A DNA stretch of 62,472 nucleotides, the filler included, from Globobulimina sp. (Eukaryota), in NCBI GenBank assembly GCA_003354225.1. It is 38 parts of 38 records of this genome, joined end to end, with 100 filler letters (N's around TTAATTAATTAA, not from the genome) between each part and the next. Parts side by side here need not be neighbours in the genome. Positions count along the whole stretch, not along the records: positions 18,126 to 19,672 come from PIVH01014988.1; 37 more parts are not named here. The stretch is one strand, 5' to 3'. A program made the position numbers and the translations under genes. Shown piece by piece: positions 1,985 to 57,537 of this stretch. Numbering within the stretch: position 1 is the stretch's first letter; each line of letters begins with the position of its first letter. The notes below the pieces were generated by a model. It ran no database searches. It was given only the letters and a program-made list of their open reading frames with translations, and was not told the DNA's origin.

Positions 1985-3002
1985 ATGAATACTAATCACA
2001 ATACAAATATTAACGTCGATATTCCACAACGAATACCCAAAAAAAATAACTTTGCAGTTGCTATATCAAAGCAAATCGTAACGAAAAATGTCAGCGCAAA
2101 CTCACACATTGAAACAGTTGAAAATAATGTAACAGCAATGCCTGAAGTGCCAAATATAGAAAATAAGAAAAGCAATGGACGCAAAAGGAAGCTCAGAGCA
2201 ATTTTGGACGCACCCAGTCCACCATCGCGATCTCCAACGCCTGTTCCAAGATCTTTTATGCAAACGGCACAGAATAAAGTTAAAACAGAGCAGACAGTCA
2301 AAACAGAGGCCGGTGGTCTGGTTATTTCTGACGGTGTGGGCATGGCATATGGTGTACCGATATATAATGAGACCTATTTTGAATGTGCGCAGTTCGAAAC
2401 TGGTGATGAGTTCGCCATGCATGAATTTGCAGACTTATGTGTGGACATTGCATGTCGGTCGGATTTGAAAATCATGCGAGATTTACGGCGAACTGCAGCA
2501 CGCGGCCTGCGGCGGAGAGAAATTACAAAGCCATTGGAGGCTGAATCGCAATTTTTAAAAGGTGTGCCAGATCAGCGGTATATTGGCTTATTTGTTAGCT
2601 GCTTTACTAGCGATGAAGAGGAGCAATTGGAGGTTGATTGGAGAGATTACATTCGTTGTAAGGATAGGAAAAAATATGTGGTATATAATATTGGCTATGA
2701 TATTCAAAAAGATATGAAATTTAGATTGTATACTTTGATGCGGATATACATGCAACAAACACATAACTTGGGGCATATTGAATGTCGACACAGAAAAGCC
2801 GCCGTGGTTGGAAAGTGATGATGTGTTTATGTTTAAGCTGTGTGGGCAAATAAAATGTATTGATTTAACAGATGTGGCATCTGACGATGATGGTGATGAG
2901 GATTATGATATTTATATGGAAAATAATAATGGGAATATTAATTATAGCGATGTTAAAGTAAAACAAGAGTTCGGTGATGAATATGATTCTGAGAGTGAAT
3001 AA
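1985..3002 (+). CDS. Unknown protein, probably one gene with a 1-nt frameshift near 2757
   Basis: ORFs 1985..2818 and 2778..3002 overlap. Removing one A from CAACAAACAC joins them as YMQQHITWGILNVDTEKPPW... Basic patch RKRKLR and acidic tail. Confidence 0.45.
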
Positions 3003-3300
3003 TAAGATTGTTTTGATTTGACTTGTGAGACTGTGGCTGTTTATTTAAACAAATTTGCATGCAATTTATACTTGTGTATTTTAGAAAGATCGATCAGATT
3101 TGAAGTTACTACATAGTGTTGATCGGTGGTAACAACGCTCATTTGACACATATATGTTATAACCAAATCAAAAACACCTTGCAGTGATCACGCATCNNNN
3201 NNNNNNNNNNNNNNNNNNNNNNNNNNNNNNNNNNNNNNNNTTAATTAATTAANNNNNNNNNNNNNNNNNNNNNNNNNNNNNNNNNNNNNNNNNNNNCTAA

Positions 3301-4844
3301 AGAAAAAGAGAGAAAACTCGATGGGGTCCTCCACCTCGCAAAAAACGATGGGGATCCAAACAACCATCGAATAGCACAAATTCATTAATTAGTAATCTAA
3401 TAAAAATAAGTCATCAAAAAGAAAGCAACACCGCAATGGCATCCGCTATGTTTGGCAATGTCTGGAACCAAAACCAAACCAAGATATTCTTACTCAAAAA
3501 CCAACTCCAAGTATGTACCAAACGCGTTGCGATTTTGCGTCCAATAACTATCCGTATATAATATAGGAAATAACCTCTGTTTATCTGACATACCGCCTCT
3601 AATCAAGTTACTCACCGTATTGTCATTTGTATTTGTTTACCTTTATTTAATCCGCATTTGATCCACGGCCAACCAATACTATACAGGACGTCTCCACTCG
3701 TTTGATAGCACCGAGCGCCTTCATAGCTGCTCCAAACGGCACAGAAAGGTCGCCGTCTCCCGAACCAATCTACGACCAAAAAGGCGTCCGAGTCAACACT
3801 CGCCAGTACAGAATGAGAGAGAAATTACAAAACCAACGCATCGGAGTTATACAACAAATAATCGCACTCGATCCTACCTACAAAGTTGAGTACCAATAGT
3901 CCAATACCAATCATTTTCCATTTTGTATACATTGCATACACACTCCACACATTTCACACAGCCGCCGCCAGACTACAAAGCGCCGAAACTAACGCATAAG
4001 ATAATGATGCCCGTGGACGACTATCCCGATTACAACTTTTTCGGTCTGATCGTGGGTCCACGCGGTAACACTCAGAAAGAAATGCAAAAGGCCACCAGCT
4101 GCAAGATCGCCGTCCGCGGCCAAGGCGCTTGCTTGGATAAACCAGGCCGCTTAGTCCACCCCGACGACAACGACCCGTTACATGTCCACATCACCGCTCC
4201 CGACCAGGACTGCCTCGACAAAGCCATCGCGATGATCCAGGCGCTGTTGGACGAGGTGAAGACCGGCGGCGGCGAGCACAAAGCCAAGCAATTGCGCGAA
4301 TTGGCCACTATCAACGGCACATTGCGCATAGAGTCTCGCTGTCGAATCTGCGGCGGACAGCATCCCATTTATCGCTGTCCGGAGAAAACGGGCGAACAAT
4401 GGACGCCGGCCGAGGTTCAGTGTAAGATATGCGGGGAATTGACGCATGTGACTGAAGACTGCAAGCATTACAAGAAAGGCAGACCGGTCACAATGATGCA
4501 TAATAGCCGGCAGAGCATCGATGCGGAATATCGCTCGTTTATGCAAGAATTGATCGGCGATGGGCCCATGTCGTCGAATAAGCCGATTGCTGCGATCACG
4601 GCGCCTATCCATCCGATGATGAGTATGATCAATCCGATGGTGAATCGCGTGATGAACCCCATTGCCAATCCGATGGCGATGCTGCAGTCACAGCCGCCAG
4701 TGAATGGCTATCATAATGTACCGCCGCCTTCGCAGAATGGGGCGGCGCCACCACCGGAATATGCCAATGGTGCCAATGGTGATAAAGGAGAGGAAAAGAA
4801 ACAAGGAGTACCAGTACCGGGGCCAGTTATGCCCAGTATGCCTA
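3301..4844 (+). CDS. SF1: Splicing factor 1 / branchpoint-bridging protein (KH-QUA2, two zinc knuckles), partial; introns 3511-3686 and 3885-3961
   Basis: KTRW/KKRW ULM-like motifs, RSPSPEPIYD, YNFFGLIVGPRGNT, KAKQLRELATINGTLR, two CxxC...H...C knuckles, Pro-rich tail. Both GT..AG introns keep frame (NQLQ|DVST; DPTYK|PPPDYK). Confidence 0.96.
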
Positions 4845-6422: not shown

Positions 6423-6592
6423 TTATTAAAATATTCGACTGCAATCAATGTATAATGTGCAATTCATAATTAATAATAATTAATTTATACATNNNNNNNN
6501 NNNNNNNNNNNNNNNNNNNNNNNNNNNNNNNNNNNNTTAATTAATTAANNNNNNNNNNNNNNNNNNNNNNNNNNNNNNNNNNNNNNNNNNNN

Positions 6593-7202: not shown

Positions 7203-8240
7203 ATTACCGAATCGAAACTAAAAATTTTTTACCTCTTCGATCTTTTTCACAACATCATCGTACTTAGTGGCAAAAGCAATAACAATTCAAAACTCATAAT
7301 AAAATATTAATGATAATTTGTCGTAGAATTTGTATTTATCCCATAAATATTTTTATGAAACCAACAACAAAACGATAAGAACGACTCAGTAGCTCAATAA
7401 TAGAGCGTGTGTCTGCAGCCTCGGCTGTCCCAGCCACAATTCTCTTTAATTACCTTTCTAAAAGGCTTTAATTCATGTACAAAATTCGTTTCAAGAAAAT
7501 TTTTTTTTTTATTATTTTTTTTTAAAATGTAGTACTACTACATACTATATGCAATGTACGGAGGATTACACAATCGTACGCAACCAGTTGTAAAGACTAT
7601 GTCATTGACAGAAAATTTTTACATACTAAATAAATTTTACCTTAAGTAGCAAAAAATTGCGCTGTTTCGTGGAACTAAAGGGACTAAACAGCTGTTCTAT
7701 AGGGCTGAGAATATAACCCCACTGATCTTAATATATACAACCAACCAAATAATAATCCATAATCCGAATATATATATTGACGTAATATATCCAATTATGA
7801 TTTGGTTGCGAAATGAATAATATCCCTTCTTCTTAATATAAATTTTTTTTCAACCCTCAGACGCACCTTCGGGTAGCACGACTTTACAGATGAGGTATAT
7901 TATGATATTGTAGTAAGCCGTAAGCCCTTAAGTCCATAATCTTACTGCTGTACCAAAATATCCTGTAAAGCCACAAACCAAACGTAACGATAGCCGTTAG
8001 GTAGATAGATAGACTGAACAGAATAAATATTTTATTGTTACAATTACGGCGTGGTGGTGTATGTAATGCAGGTAATTGTTTTTTGAGTGACCGGCATTAT
8101 CAAATTAATGATGGAAAGAATGGCAATATTAATGGCAATANNNNNNNNNNNNNNNNNNNNNNNNNNNNNNNNNNNNNNNNNNNNTTAATTAATTAANNNN
8201 NNNNNNNNNNNNNNNNNNNNNNNNNNNNNNNNNNNNNNNN

Positions 8241-18125: not shown

Positions 18126-18926
18126 GGCATGTATGGTAAGTATGTCATTGCTAAAATGGTATGTATTTTGTAAAATTATATTCTAGAAAGTGGTTCCGGG
18201 GGTAAAGAAAGAAACTACAATGAATTAAAGTTGGGAGACAACTTGCCTGCTTTGAAAAAGTTGATGAAAGTATTGGTCGACAGGTTGGTATGGTTGGAGG
18301 ATAACAAACGTTTCGCTGGTTCGCAGTCAGCTCGAAAAACTGATGATGTTCGCAAATATTTGAAGGAAAAGGCCTCGACTAAAGTAGTACAAGGTGTATT
18401 GACAACCGTAGATGGTGATCCATCAAGTAATATTACTCGATTCACTTATTATTATTATTTTTATACCTCTTGCATTCTTTGTAGAATATGGAAACAAAAC
18501 GATGGCAGAATGGCATGGTTTTGCAAAAGAATTGTACAGACATATTGATCGTATCGAGGTGATCAACGACATGCTTAATGATGAAACGCGTAAGATTTTT
18601 ATTTCGTACATTTATAAATGCATCCAACGTCCGTTTTTGCAGTTTCAAAAGGAATGTCTGGTTTGACTATTGGTGAAGTAAAAGAAATCGTTGTCAAGGC
18701 TTTGTTGAGCCCCGATCATGTAAATGCAACAATGGAAAGTTTGTTCGAAAAAGGAGGTGTCCTTGTTGAGAAACGAAAACAGTTGGTCGACAAATACAAC
18801 AAGAGAAAACTGAAGACCAAACAGGCAGCAGCGGCGGCAGCAGCTGCATCAGCAATTACACCAGAACCTTTGGATGATGATGCAGGACCCAGTTACGATT
18901 ATTTTGAGGCATCACAAGAAATTTGA
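18126..18926 (+). CDS. Unknown spliced gene, 5' partial; phase-1 introns 18136-18186, 18427-18484, 18590-18642
   Basis: Three GT(A/AA)..YAG introns of 51, 58 and 53 nt join ORFs 18231, 18412 and 18618 into one open frame. AATAAA at 18990. Confidence 0.8.
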
Positions 18927-19004
18927 ACAAGTACATTGTAGGAACTTTGACTCTGTTTAACGATATTTTTTATTGTAAAACAGTTTGATAATAAAACAAA
19001 ATTT

Positions 19005-19349
19005 TTAAGAAAGTTTAACCCACACCTTATCCCCAACTTCTCCTTCAACTCGGTTGTTCAAATCATTGACTGCCAGGATGGTCCAAAACTTTTTAATATC
19101 AAAAGGTCTCGCCATAGAACTTTTGTCATCAGCAACAGTATATTCGATTAGATCTACCAAAGGGCTTCCGGGGACAAATTCGTCAACATCTTCACCAACA
19201 TACAACATTCGGCCATCTGGGTCAAGTTTTATATGAGGCCACAACTCATCCAACATACGCTTGCCTTTGGGATTAGTTAGATAACTAATAAAATCTTCCT
19301 TCAGCAGCGATTTCGAACCTTCATTTTCTACAATTTTAACGGCTGCCAT
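19005..19349 (-). CDS. Polinton/Maverick-type small conserved protein
   Basis: KGKRMLDEL...DPDGRMLY...VPGSPLVDLIEY...RPFDIKKFWTIL...WVKL matches the recalled Polinton motif G(E/R)L...PGSN(I/L)VDL...P.G...F...L. Confidence 0.6.
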   Translation of the reverse strand: MAAVKIVENEGSKSLLKEDFISYLTNPKGKRMLDELWPHIKLDPDGRMLYVGEDVDEFVPGSPLVDLIEYTVADDKSSMARPFDIKKFWTILAVNDLNNRVEGEVGDKVWVKLS

Positions 19350-19644
19350 CTTTGTTGAGATATCTCAATCCTTCTTCACAAATAGATGGAACAATCTTTT
19401 TTCTGTAGCGATGTGTGAGCAATAGTTCACGTTTTCTCTTGAGTGAGCCCTTTTCAAACAATTTTAAGTCCGACTTTCTAATCTTTTGATTTAAAATGTC
19501 AGCATTTACAACAAGTTCAGCCACAGCTTGAGCCAAAAACTTTTGCTCCTCCAACAAAGTCAAATAGAGACGTTTACTGAGACTAGGGTTACTTAGTAAA
19601 GATAGGGCACACCAATTATCATAAATGTGCTGTCCGGCAGCCAT
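19336..19644 (-). CDS. Polinton/Maverick-type small basic protein
   Basis: LAQAVAELVVN...GSLKRKRELL resembles the Polinton ORF pattern (ICE..LN; SLKxKRxLL); overlaps the next ORF by 14 nt. Confidence 0.5.
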   Translation of the reverse strand: MAAGQHIYDNWCALSLLSNPSLSKRLYLTLLEEQKFLAQAVAELVVNADILNQKIRKSDLKLFEKGSLKRKRELLLTHRYRKKIVPSICEEGLRYLNKDGSR

Positions 19645-19772
19645 AACAATTTTACAACAACAAAATCAATCGNNNNNNNNNNNNNNNNNNNNNNNNNNNN
19701 NNNNNNNNNNNNNNNNTTAATTAATTAANNNNNNNNNNNNNNNNNNNNNNNNNNNNNNNNNNNNNNNNNNNN

Positions 19773-52600: not shown

Positions 52601-53029
52601 NNNNNNNNNNNNNNNNNNNNNNNNNNNNNNNNNNNNNNNNNNNNTTAATTAATTAANNNNNNNNNNNNNNNNNNNNNNNNNNNNNNNNNNNNNNNNNNNN
52701 GAGACTGCATGTAACGAATCACCAATCCCTACATTCCCAAATATTGAAATGAATATTGAATAGAAAGAGGAAGAAAATACACTACAAACCCCACACTATG
52801 ATCCAAACTATGTACCATCAACACAACCCATTATAAACGAATTATATGCACTGGAACACAGCGACCAGGATTATGACAGTGATAATGATGTAATTATAAA
52901 TATGCCATCCCAAACACCGCACAGTCCGCCAATTCGCACTCACTCCGTCGAAATTAATGAAAAAAAGGAAACTGAGAATGTCCCGAACGGCCAAAATAAT
53001 CCAGTTATAAACAGAAAAGCCAAATGCCA

Positions 53030-53738
53030 TTCCGTTGAATTAGCACTTTCCTATGCTAACCAAAACAGTGCCCCGGGATATGATGGAATAAAATCTGTCC
53101 ACCTTAAAACCAACGGACATTCCATAAATGAGCTATTATGTACAATGTTCAATGTTTGGAATAAATCATTCTTCATACCATATTATTGGAGACTAGGCAC
53201 TGTGGTCCCAATACTAAAAACAAAAGATGGCAATACGCCGAACCAATACAGACCCATCACATTGCTACCGATTATATTCAAAGCCTATGAAAGATTGATC
53301 CTTTGGGAAATGAGCATAAAACATAAATTTAGAAAAAAATTACATACATTGCAAGGCGGTAATAGACACAAGAGAGGAGTGCCAGAGCAGATTGGCTGTA
53401 TCAATTTGATTGCTGAAACTGCCAAAATGCGAGAAATCCCCCTTTACTGTGCTCTCCTTGATATCCGTAAAGCGTTCGACACAGTGTGGAGAAAAGGACT
53501 CCTCTTCAAACTAAATAACCAATTTAAAATACCACTAAATCTCTGCAAAATAATTAAGGCGATCTATGACAACTCGCAGTCTGCCATCAGAGATCTACCT
53601 TTCATAACCAACAAATTCATACTCCATAATGGTGTCTTGCAAGGATCGGTACTTTCCCCCGTCCTCTACGCAGCCTCACCGGACCCCAATGAACCAATTG
53701 CATGCACCCTCTATGCCGATGACATAATACTTAAATAA
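53030..53738 (+). mobile_element. Non-LTR (LINE) reverse transcriptase, decayed fragment
   Basis: SAPGYDGI, YRPITLL, LLDIRKAFDTVWR, GVLQGSVLSP, LYADD; shortened spacing before YADD and a stop right after it. Confidence 0.92.
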
Positions 53739-55992: not shown

Positions 55993-57537
55993 GCATAAAT
56001 TAATGATGAAATTTGGGCAACAGCGAAATTATTCAGCTCAAGAGGTAATGTTCCATAATTTAAGTATACCGTTAGTGGAACATCCAAATCTTGTGTTTCA
56101 AGATATAAACTTATATCCTTCGTTTACGTGTTATGTTGATAGAAAAACAAAAACCTGGAAAACACCAAAAAGTATTGTGGATGTATACGCAGAAAGATTA
56201 AAATATAAAAATAAAGTGGAGTTTAAAGGTATAAACTGGGATAAAATGAACTTAGACACCTTTGTCAGGACATTCAAAGTAACTAAATTATCAACTGAAG
56301 AACCAGTTTTAACAAAACGAAAAAAAAGTAATAAAAACGATTCAAAAACAAAATATCATATAATTAATTGGATTCCCGAAATTAAAGTTCAAAAAGGGAA
56401 AAATATTACAAAATGGTATGAATGTGAATTATTAAAATATCATTGCTGGAGTGATCAACCTAGCACTGTTTTACCGGATGATATTCGCTCTTTAGCAGGA
56501 GACGCCAGAGACATTGCAGTTAAAGAATATTATCAAACATTTATTGAAAAACATAAAGATATTTTAGATGTAAATGTTGTTAATGCAGAGAAATTGTTAG
56601 AAGTTGAAATTGAAGAAGTAGAATTTATGGAAATTGAAGAATGTATTGAAGATGAAGATGGCATCTTGGAATTTTCTAAAGGAGAGCAAGGGAAAATATC
56701 AGACAATACATTATTTCCAATATTTGATGAGACTTCATTAGAATACGACTGGACTGAGCATTCAGCTAAATTTTCTCCTACAGAAATTACAGAATTACAA
56801 ACATGGCTACCGACACAAAAGAAAATACATAAAATCGAGCGAAAACAAAAAAAGATTGACATTTCTAAATATAAATTAAAGCAAAAAATAGCGTATAAAA
56901 TGGTTGAAAATCATTTTGTTGATCAAAATAAAAATAAAAAACAATTATTAGCAATTTTCACTGGAACAGCTGGTACAGGTAAATCACATGTTATTCATGG
57001 CTTAACTCAGTTGTTAGGATCAAAATGTAAAAAATTAGCACCCACTGGAAACACAGCATTTAATATCGGTGGTGACACTGCTTCCTCGCAATTATATCTC
57101 CCGATAATGGGAAAGAAAAAAGGTGCAATACCTGATACTTTATTATCTTCGTATCAAGAAAGGTGGTCACGTGTTGTAGAATATGTAATTATTGATGAAG
57201 TTGGTTTAATTGGGCAAGAAGAGTTTGGTTATATTGACAAAAGACTTCGCAATATATATCAAAGATCAACTGTTCCATTTGGCGGATTAAATATAATTTT
57301 AGTTGGTGATTTTGCCCAATTACCGGCAATTGGCGACACTGCTTTATGGAAACCATCACCATCAAATGCAAGTAATATGAAACGAATGGGTAGAAAATTA
57401 TATTTAATGTTTGAAAAGGCTGTTACTTTAACAGAAATAATTAGACAAGATTCAGATCAAGTACAATTTATTCAATTATTAAGAAACGTACGTGATGGCA
57501 AGTGTACTGAAGATGATTGGAGGTATATGCAAACAAG
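55993..57537 (+). mobile_element. Helitron/Helentron-type Rep-Hel fragment with PIF1-family helicase
   Basis: RNYSAQEV..LSIPL and LLKYHCW linker motifs; TGTAGTGKS, LAPTGNTAFNIGG, IIDEVGL, PFGGLNIILVGDFAQLP, LTEIIRQ. Confidence 0.8.

Follow-up and report, generated by a model that had tools for sequence, protein, structure and literature searches.

A probable Polinton/Maverick-like element fragment with position-conserved introns in a Globobulimina sp. assembly

The contig described here (PIVH01014988.1; 1,547 bp, 37.5% G+C) belongs to assembly GCA_003354225.1 of Globobulimina sp. and is probably a fragment of a Polinton/Maverick-like element. It carries the 3' part of a gene with three introns on the plus strand and, tail-to-tail with it, two small overlapping open reading frames (ORFs) on the minus strand, termed ORF A and ORF B. 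The window, i.e., the whole stretch of DNA analysed (62,472 bases), is composed of 38 segments of 1,545–1,548 bases each, ordered by length, with N..TTAATTAATTAA..N spacers between them; positions 18126–19672 correspond to exactly one whole segment, with linkers at both sides. Since the 38 contigs are separate and the linkers artificial, the segments flanking 18126–19672 are not genomic context, and findings which cross a linker, or which use adjacent segments as context, are artefacts. Coordinates refer to the window unless one of the relatives is named.

On the plus strand, the spliced gene begins at the contig edge with the last 10 nucleotides (nt) of an upstream exon (18126–18135), which read ..G M Y plus the first base of the next codon. 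Then follow intron 1 (18136–18186; 51 nt, GTAAGT..TAG), an exon of 240 nt (18187–18426) encoding the best-conserved part of the protein (..RFAGSQSARK..), intron 2 (18427–18484; 58 nt, GTAATA..TAG), an exon of 105 nt (18485–18589), intron 3 (18590–18642; 53 nt, GTAAGA..CAG) and the last exon (18643–18926), which encodes a basic patch rich in KRK, a run of Ala residues and an acidic C-terminal tail and closes with the stop codon TGA at 18924–18926. Joining of 18126–18135, 18187–18426, 18485–18589 and 18643–18926 gave 212 codons plus stop and no internal stop; the unspliced reading meets a stop at codon 16. A first-pass annotation of the contig had proposed three phase-1 introns of 51–58 nt, and all three were recovered with these lengths, with GT..AG borders and with an open joined frame.

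A scan of metagenome contigs provided two relatives from named records, L001 (1,838 bp) and L002 (11,331 bp). Intron 1 corresponds in position and phase to an intron of L002 (6881–6830). The position of intron 2 matches introns at 6592–6546 in L002 and 1757–1704 in L001, with a sequence identity not above that of shuffles, and the position of intron 3 matches 6443–6391 in L002 and 1598–1546 in L001. Introns 2 and 3 are therefore supported by both comparisons, intron 1 by L002 only, because L001 ends before it. The interruption sites common to the contig, L002 and L001 lie after the ..VDG(D/E)P.. block and after the ..ML(N/T)(D/H)(E/D).. block. Protein identity of the exons between loci is 44–60%; in tblastn the 240-nt exon showed 55% identity to L002 and 42% over the 26 residues present in L001, and the 105-nt exon 45% and 52%, respectively. 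Altogether nine introns were compared among the three loci. All nine are of the GT..AG type and 47–58 nt long, with a G+C content below that of their exons and at identical codon positions and phases; their pairwise identity exceeded the maximum of 200 shuffles in none of seven comparisons and equalled it in two. Conserved position together with free intron sequence argues that these are spliceosomal introns and not the result of decay.

As judged from these comparisons, the spliced gene is real but truncated on the contig. The L002 homologue of the 10-nt stub is an exon of 310 nt, at whose end the ..MY-G|gtaagt junction is found again; upstream of it lie a phase-0 intron of 49 nt (donor at 7240) and a first exon of 180 nt which starts at an ATG; the complete L002 model has five exons and 351 codons without internal stop. 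The longer L002 exon and the further exon upstream of it show that the gene on the contig is 5'-truncated; it is without about 160 N-terminal codons because the contig ends there, and the ATG at 18129 is probably internal and not a start codon. The two internal exons measure 240 and 105 nt on the contig and 237 and 102 nt in L002. Since the three shared introns around them are all of phase 1, skipping of either exon would keep the frame, and exon skipping could give rise to in-frame isoforms.

When the best-conserved exon was searched exhaustively against 1.84 billion representative proteins, three matches at E ≤ 0.001 were obtained. One of them, P0010, is a true relative of 102 amino acids (aa), an ORF call of the size of an exon; the remaining two are long proteins with coiled-coil or adhesin repeats and were regarded as compositional matches. 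A Pfam scan of the four contig pieces gave none at the curated cut-off, and profile searches against PDB sequences with alignments A1, A2, A3 and A4 gave only E ≥ 0.2, so that neither family-library nor PDB profile searches put a name to the spliced protein. Our best guess is that it acts in the nucleus as an accessory protein belonging to the replication-side unit.

On the minus strand, ORF B (19005–19349) encodes an acidic protein of 114 aa with an isoelectric point (pI) of 4.7, and ORF A (19336–19644) a basic protein of 102 aa (pI 9.7), which is predicted to be all-helical. The overlap between them (19336–19349), from the ATG of ORF B to the TAA of ORF A, measures 14 nt and is of equal length in all three loci. 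A further 28 nt upstream of ORF A (19645–19672) reach to the contig end; in L001 and L002 an ATPase gene ends 8–30 nt upstream of ORF A. Strong purifying selection acts on both small ORFs. When the contig, L001 and L002 were compared in pairs, all six comparisons gave nonsynonymous differences (pN) of 0.18–0.25 and saturated synonymous differences (pS) of 0.73–0.96, with pN 0.19–0.22 versus pS 0.85–0.96 for ORF B and pN 0.18–0.25 versus pS 0.73–0.80 for ORF A.

Database relatives of the small ORFs were few. ORF B matched seven proteins at 57–65% identity (among nine candidates) and ORF A two (among five candidates). A profile of ORF B found 19 proteins at E ≤ 0.01 (among 3,725 candidates), an unnamed family of 19 database clusters, all on contigs of at most 11.3 kb; none of the 19 members matches Pfam. 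IMG/VR scans with the small-ORF alignments gave no relatives among 112 (A1) and 515 (A2) pattern matches. A prokaryote genome scan with A1 confirmed one locus of 28 pattern matches (L003), which was rejected as a chance occurrence of the word ELWPHIK in a 521-aa enzyme-like bacterial ORF. The suggestion that the small ORFs are known conserved Polinton genes preceding the integrase was not borne out: no match was obtained in Pfam, PHROGs or PDB sequence searches, and in L002 they follow the ATPase, with the probable integrase upstream of the latter.

The structure predicted for ORF A from a three-sequence alignment is a six-helix bundle (predicted local distance difference test, pLDDT, 71.6; predicted template modelling score, pTM, 0.60). 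In a Foldseek search against BFVD the top match was the 109-aa GasderminX of Terrapene box turtle adintovirus (probability 0.97, template modelling score 0.53/0.51, 105 columns, 18% identity, E 0.19). This likeness between a model and a protein of similar size should be taken as a lead only. Foldseek against PDB gave no match at E ≤ 0.001 and no gasdermin among the matches listed, and the best Z of a wide VIA-align search against PDB, 5.5, is generic for helical bundles. The ORF B model was unusable (mean pLDDT 42.9), and its best score in an Atlas search, 0.89, was below the lead threshold. In vertebrate Mavericks the ATPase gene is followed by the conserved, function-unassigned ORFs pm and pz, in the order atp-pm-pz (PMC8097293). 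Because ORF A and ORF B sit at the position where conserved small ORFs follow atp in those elements, the best guess by analogy is that they are most likely small virion or packaging accessory proteins.

The tail-to-tail interval between the spliced gene and ORF B (18927–19004) comprises 78 nt with 77% A+T and contains AATAAA on the plus strand (18990–18995) as well as on the minus strand (18974–18969). The arrangement described previously, with the gene ending 78 nt from an overlapping minus-strand ORF pair and AATAAA on both strands, was confirmed here in its coordinates, the overlap of the ORFs measuring 14 nt. Shuffling of the interval produced both hexamers in 3.3% of 20,000 cases, and of 657 other 78-nt pieces with at least 72% A+T from elsewhere in the whole stretch, 2.9% contained both. 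The pair on the contig alone is thus a modest signal, but the arrangement recurs in the relatives: a poly(A) hexamer is present on each strand of the interval in all three loci, and the convergent units end 40–80 nt apart. L001 has AATAAA on both strands, L002 has AATAAA on one and ATTAAA on the other. In the contig and in L001 the hexamers interdigitate; in L002 they overlap within TTTAATAAA. Given that the signals on the contig interdigitate, the 3' untranslated regions would overlap. In none of the three loci does the sense strand hold a canonical AATAAA between the ATPase and the end of ORF B; the first one lies beyond it (ATTAAA is found within ORF B once in the contig, once in L002 and not in L001). 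For this reason a common 3' end is probable for the ATPase and the two small ORFs, and the sequences suggest 3'-coterminal transcripts.

The three genes of the contig have the same order and orientation in both relatives, and the homologues of the three large exons are likewise in order. L001 contains the 3' half of the ATPase gene, ORF A, ORF B and the convergent spliced gene. In L002, one strand carries a 272-aa ORF and an ORF set of about 480 aa (penton- and major-capsid-looking), then a RING-like ORF and the probable integrase gene, and after these the ATPase gene and the two small ORFs; the opposite strand carries a family-B DNA polymerase (PolB) and then the spliced gene. The L002 sequences FDVET, DFCSLYP, KILMNSLWGK and YCDTDS are what we take to be the Exo I, A, B and C motifs of family-B polymerases. 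A piece of L002 (8067–8651) matched phrog_1907, 'DNA polymerase' (E 2.9e-12), and two colinear, weak DNA_pol_B_2 matches were found (E 0.011 and 0.083). As a reading of motifs and matches, the identity of this polymerase is solid.

The gene directly upstream of ORF A in L001 and L002 encodes a Walker A motif, GGTSSGKTT, and a Walker B motif, LLIFDDLEE; the L002 copy gave a weak match to Pox_A32 (E 0.094). An IMG/VR scan with the ATPase alignment (A5) found no relatives among 31 pattern matches. For the probable integrase (L002 3425–3985) a weak rve match was obtained (E 0.02; 15.6 bits, cut-off 32.6), and the PDB integrase 3dlr matched the same stretch with E 0.99; searches of the integrase and PolB pieces against PDB sequences gave nothing significant. 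A capsid-like ORF of L002 (1273–1965) had no Pfam match; its Atlas score was 0.96, and the clusters it resembled were from Parabasalia and Mollusca (with DJR-like_dom on 10% of members) and from the major capsid proteins of giant viruses (Capsid_N/Capsid_NCLDV). The penton candidate of L002 looks like one by position and size only. Constraint varies widely within this one gene cluster, as judged from the identities between loci: the C-terminal exon of the ATPase (L001 253–582, L002 5149–5472) is 88% identical between L001 and L002, the small ORFs are 66–70% identical between the same two loci, and the spliced gene lies at 44–60%.

Some further features were seen in L002. An ORF of 161 aa with a hydrophobic N-terminal segment (2350–2835, minus strand) lies between the capsid-like genes and the probable integrase, and the same gap contains an ORF of 168 aa (2956–3462, plus strand) with weak RING-finger matches (E 0.015–0.056). 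A G+C-rich cluster of perfect hairpins (7505–7661) is situated between the end of the ORF on the polymerase strand and the start codon of the spliced-gene homologue, with arms of 17 nt at 7516–7532/7576–7592 and of 15 nt at 7629–7643/7647–7661. The cluster may represent a short repeat inserted at this site, or else an element acting in regulation or termination.

Introns in this group would appear to be a property of the lineage, present in the core genes for ATPase and PolB as well as in the spliced gene. The ATPase gene is interrupted in L001 and L002 at the identical codon (..FTVY-R|..|HHWG..) by a phase-2 intron of 49 nt with GT..AG borders. In the L002 PolB, six of eight junctions between coding pieces hold a canonical, frame-restoring intron candidate of 46–52 nt; of the remaining junctions, one has only a poor candidate of 128 nt and one has none. 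The introns of the proposed accessory gene are supported by the relatives, but splicing is not special to this gene.

The polymerase, the A32-type ATPase, the rve-like ORF and the capsid-like ORFs of L002, all within 11 kb, amount to the Polinton/Maverick gene set (PMC11161782, PMC5718144, PMC4028283). We therefore regard the contig, with good confidence as to its identity and gene models, as a Polinton/Maverick-like element fragment which holds the ends of a packaging-side and a replication-side unit and which would be expressed through host nuclear transcription, splicing and polyadenylation. The observations behind this reading are synteny, intron positions, purifying selection on the small ORFs and the L002 polymerase; nuclear transcription and host processing are what we infer from them. 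The element would live in, or infect, an AT-rich eukaryote with introns of about 50 nt, and the contig would be the meeting point of two convergent transcription units. The minus strand would hold the end of the packaging unit, consisting of the ATPase (just off the contig), the basic helical ORF A and the acidic ORF B. The plus strand would hold the last four exons of a protein of about 350 aa, whose gene is located in L002 downstream of the DNA polymerase gene. Both units would end in one A+T-rich interval of 40–80 nt with poly(A) signals facing both ways. Transcription would take place in the nucleus by the host RNA polymerase II, the transcripts would be processed by the host spliceosome and polyadenylation machinery, and ORF B might be reached by leaky scanning, reinitiation or a nested transcript.

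Several points weigh against this assignment. The contig itself carries no hallmark Polinton gene; such genes are seen in the relatives only, and so the assignment rests on synteny with relatives of 44–68% protein identity. The polymerase by which membership in the Polintoviricetes is judged was found in L002 and not on the contig. The integrase, ATPase and capsid assignments in L002 are each under curated thresholds. Among 22 L002 ORFs scanned against Pfam, no Ulp1/adenain-type protease was detected, nor did L002 show terminal repeats; like the other contigs, it stops short of the ends of the element. The sole structural lead on the functions of the three proteins, from ORF A, was sub-threshold (Foldseek E 0.19). 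Of the polintovirus/adintovirus-like element proposed at first, the Polinton/Maverick-like character was retained, by synteny with L001 and L002, and a sequence-level link to adintovirus proteins was not obtained.

Database sequences and the other contigs of the window gave some information on occurrence. A Logan contig from run X1 covers 18754–19252 across the tail-to-tail junction, possibly from the same sample. In record 3 of the same run (a contig of 1,539 nt, same sample) two short parts of ORF B were matched within 19078–19243, with 103 other letters replacing 109; the sample thus seems to hold the element a second time, in diverged form, which would fit a multi-copy family. Run X2, labelled marine sediment metagenome, contained one 167-nt contig corresponding to 18551–18717 with one mismatch and with intron 3 unspliced, which is too little for a statement on habitat. 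The pieces from both runs are unspliced DNA. A tblastx comparison of L001 and L002 with the whole stretch showed no further piece of the element on the other 37 contigs. Two of these contain fragments of other mobile elements from the same assembly, a PIF1-like helicase (55994–57535; Pfam PIF1, E 2.8e-21) and a reverse transcriptase (52764–53735; RVT_1, E 6.8e-16). The G+C content at third codon positions (GC3) of the coding parts of the element is 0.37; 27 other contigs range from 0.20 to 0.62 with a median of 0.30, and since the element lies within this range, GC3 does not tell a resident from a foreign sequence. A crude scan of the other contigs for host introns gave 0 and then 2 candidates; it missed known introns too and is hence uninformative.

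Other explanations of the locus have to be weighed. The spliced gene could be cargo captured from a host and not an ancestral gene of the element, as are the intron-bearing WASP protease and KRMA kinase of nematode Mavericks. The presence of introns would fit this, as would the faster evolution of the gene (44–60% identity between loci, compared with 88% for the C-terminal exon of the ATPase), and nematode Mavericks do hold intron-bearing cargo beside intronless core genes (10.1101/2022.07.12.499685). Yet the core ATPase and PolB of the present lineage are spliced as well, so that introns are no mark of cargo; in L002 the gene is flanked by PolB and ORF B, in the contig and both relatives it runs towards ORF B from the opposite strand, and its intron positions are common to copies with saturated synonymous sites. 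Cellular homologues were not found among the 1.84 billion representatives, where the best-conserved exon retrieved one exon-sized relative and two repeat proteins. Capture from a host is thus quite improbable, and the position of the spliced gene internal to the element in L002 agrees with the earlier view that it belongs to the element and does not flank an insertion as a host gene.

It is also conceivable, if unlikely, that the contig is a dead endogenous relic, in which the frames are leftover and nothing is expressed. Of vertebrate-genome Mavericks, 96% are degraded (PMC8097293), and the diverged second ORF B copy in the same sample (X1, record 3) is as expected of a repeat family. On the contig, however, all frames are intact and all six splice sites canonical; furthermore, nonsynonymous divergence is far under synonymous divergence, which shows selection along lineages and not activity of this particular copy. 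That the apparent introns are indels or frameshifts of a decaying gene, or that the junction is an assembly chimera of a host gene and a viral fragment, is close to refuted. The contig is short and the assembly highly fragmented, but all nine intervening segments compared are GT..AG, measure 47–58 nt and interrupt the same codons in contigs independent of one another; the junction too is found again in both L001 and L002, and the Logan contig crosses it, though perhaps from the same sample.

With a Polinton/Maverick-like element as the preferred reading, the introns merit a comparison with the literature. Intact vertebrate Mavericks were described as having 'eight conserved and intronless ORFs', 'in agreement with Kapitonov and Jurka (2006)' (PMC8097293). 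The core genes of nematode Mavericks were called 'intronless', with introns in cargo genes only (Widen et al., preprint, 10.1101/2022.07.12.499685). In a large screen of endogenous polinton-like viruses it was stated that endogenous viruses 'do not contain introns', and prokaryotic gene finders were used for this reason (PMC10120064). Full-text literature searches, which did not extend to Kapitonov and Jurka 2006, to Pritham et al. 2007 or to the 2024 review of Koonin et al., found no account of Polinton core genes with conserved spliceosomal introns. The nearest case in the literature is that of introner transposons within dinoflagellate proviruses (PMC12166617). We therefore propose tentatively, at somewhat less than even confidence, an undescribed Polinton-like lineage in which core and accessory genes gained spliceosomal introns long ago and have kept them at fixed codons. 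Its expression would depend on the host spliceosome, and it would be characterized further by a conserved ATPase/ORF A/ORF B cassette in which the overlap stays at 14 nt, and by one polyadenylation interval serving both strands.

Since described Polintons were reported to be intronless, short and position-conserved spliceosomal introns would be of interest. With polymerase and ATPase split into exons of 100–400 nt, such a lineage would be fragmented or missed in screens with prokaryotic gene finders, and this may be why the databases contain its proteins only as ORFs of exon size, without names and on contigs of little length. That the introns have kept their positions also argues for expression in the nucleus with the aid of the spliceosome over long periods, as far as sequences can tell, which bears on the question of virus versus resident-gene behaviour. 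The lineage further offers a concrete case for asking by what route a DNA virus acquires introns and why it retains them. A compact and strongly conserved cassette next to the packaging ATPase is added by the small ORFs.

Vertebrate Mavericks/Polintons carry genes for protein-primed-type PolB (pPolB), packaging ATPase, integrase and capsid proteins, of which L002 has a PolB and candidates for the other three, and they share with the present group opposite-strand modules which point towards each other (PMC8097293, also for the following). The place of ORF A and ORF B after the ATPase corresponds to that of pm and pz, a likeness which is positional only. The sizes of the L002 genes are similar to those of the vertebrate elements; the ATPase, for instance, has about 230 aa, compared with a 272-codon ATPase alignment there. 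PZ has about 260 codons according to a supplementary table, versus 114 aa for ORF B; the two were compared by size and position only. The vertebrate modules are PolB-ATP-PM-PZ versus INT-mCP-PW-MCP-PRO, whereas those of L002 are mCP-MCP-..-INT-ATP-A-B versus PolB-spliced gene, and the intact vertebrate elements are reported as intronless, whereas here ATPase, PolB and the third gene are spliced.

Nematode Mavericks are virus-like elements with PolB, integrase, ATPase and capsid genes which resemble the group in also carrying intron-containing genes; they differ in that their core genes are given as intronless, whereas here it is core genes that hold introns, with the spliced gene placed between PolB and ORF B (10.1101/2022.07.12.499685). 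Adintoviruses/Eupolintoviridae have PolB, an rve integrase, an FtsK-type ATPase, hexon- and penton-like capsid genes and small conserved accessory genes such as 'Adintoc' and GasderminX (Starrett et al. 2021, PMC8502044). According to that paper GasderminX is homologous to the C-terminal, helical domain of gasdermins, has a basic tail resembling pX and forms part of the virion module; an adenain was not seen in L002. The introner-bearing eupolintoviral proviruses of dinoflagellates are likewise Polinton-like proviruses with intron-type sequences, but theirs are recent insertions of intron-generating transposons (PMC12166617). The introns described here, in contrast, are short, mutually unrelated in sequence and fixed at the same codons despite saturated synonymous sites.

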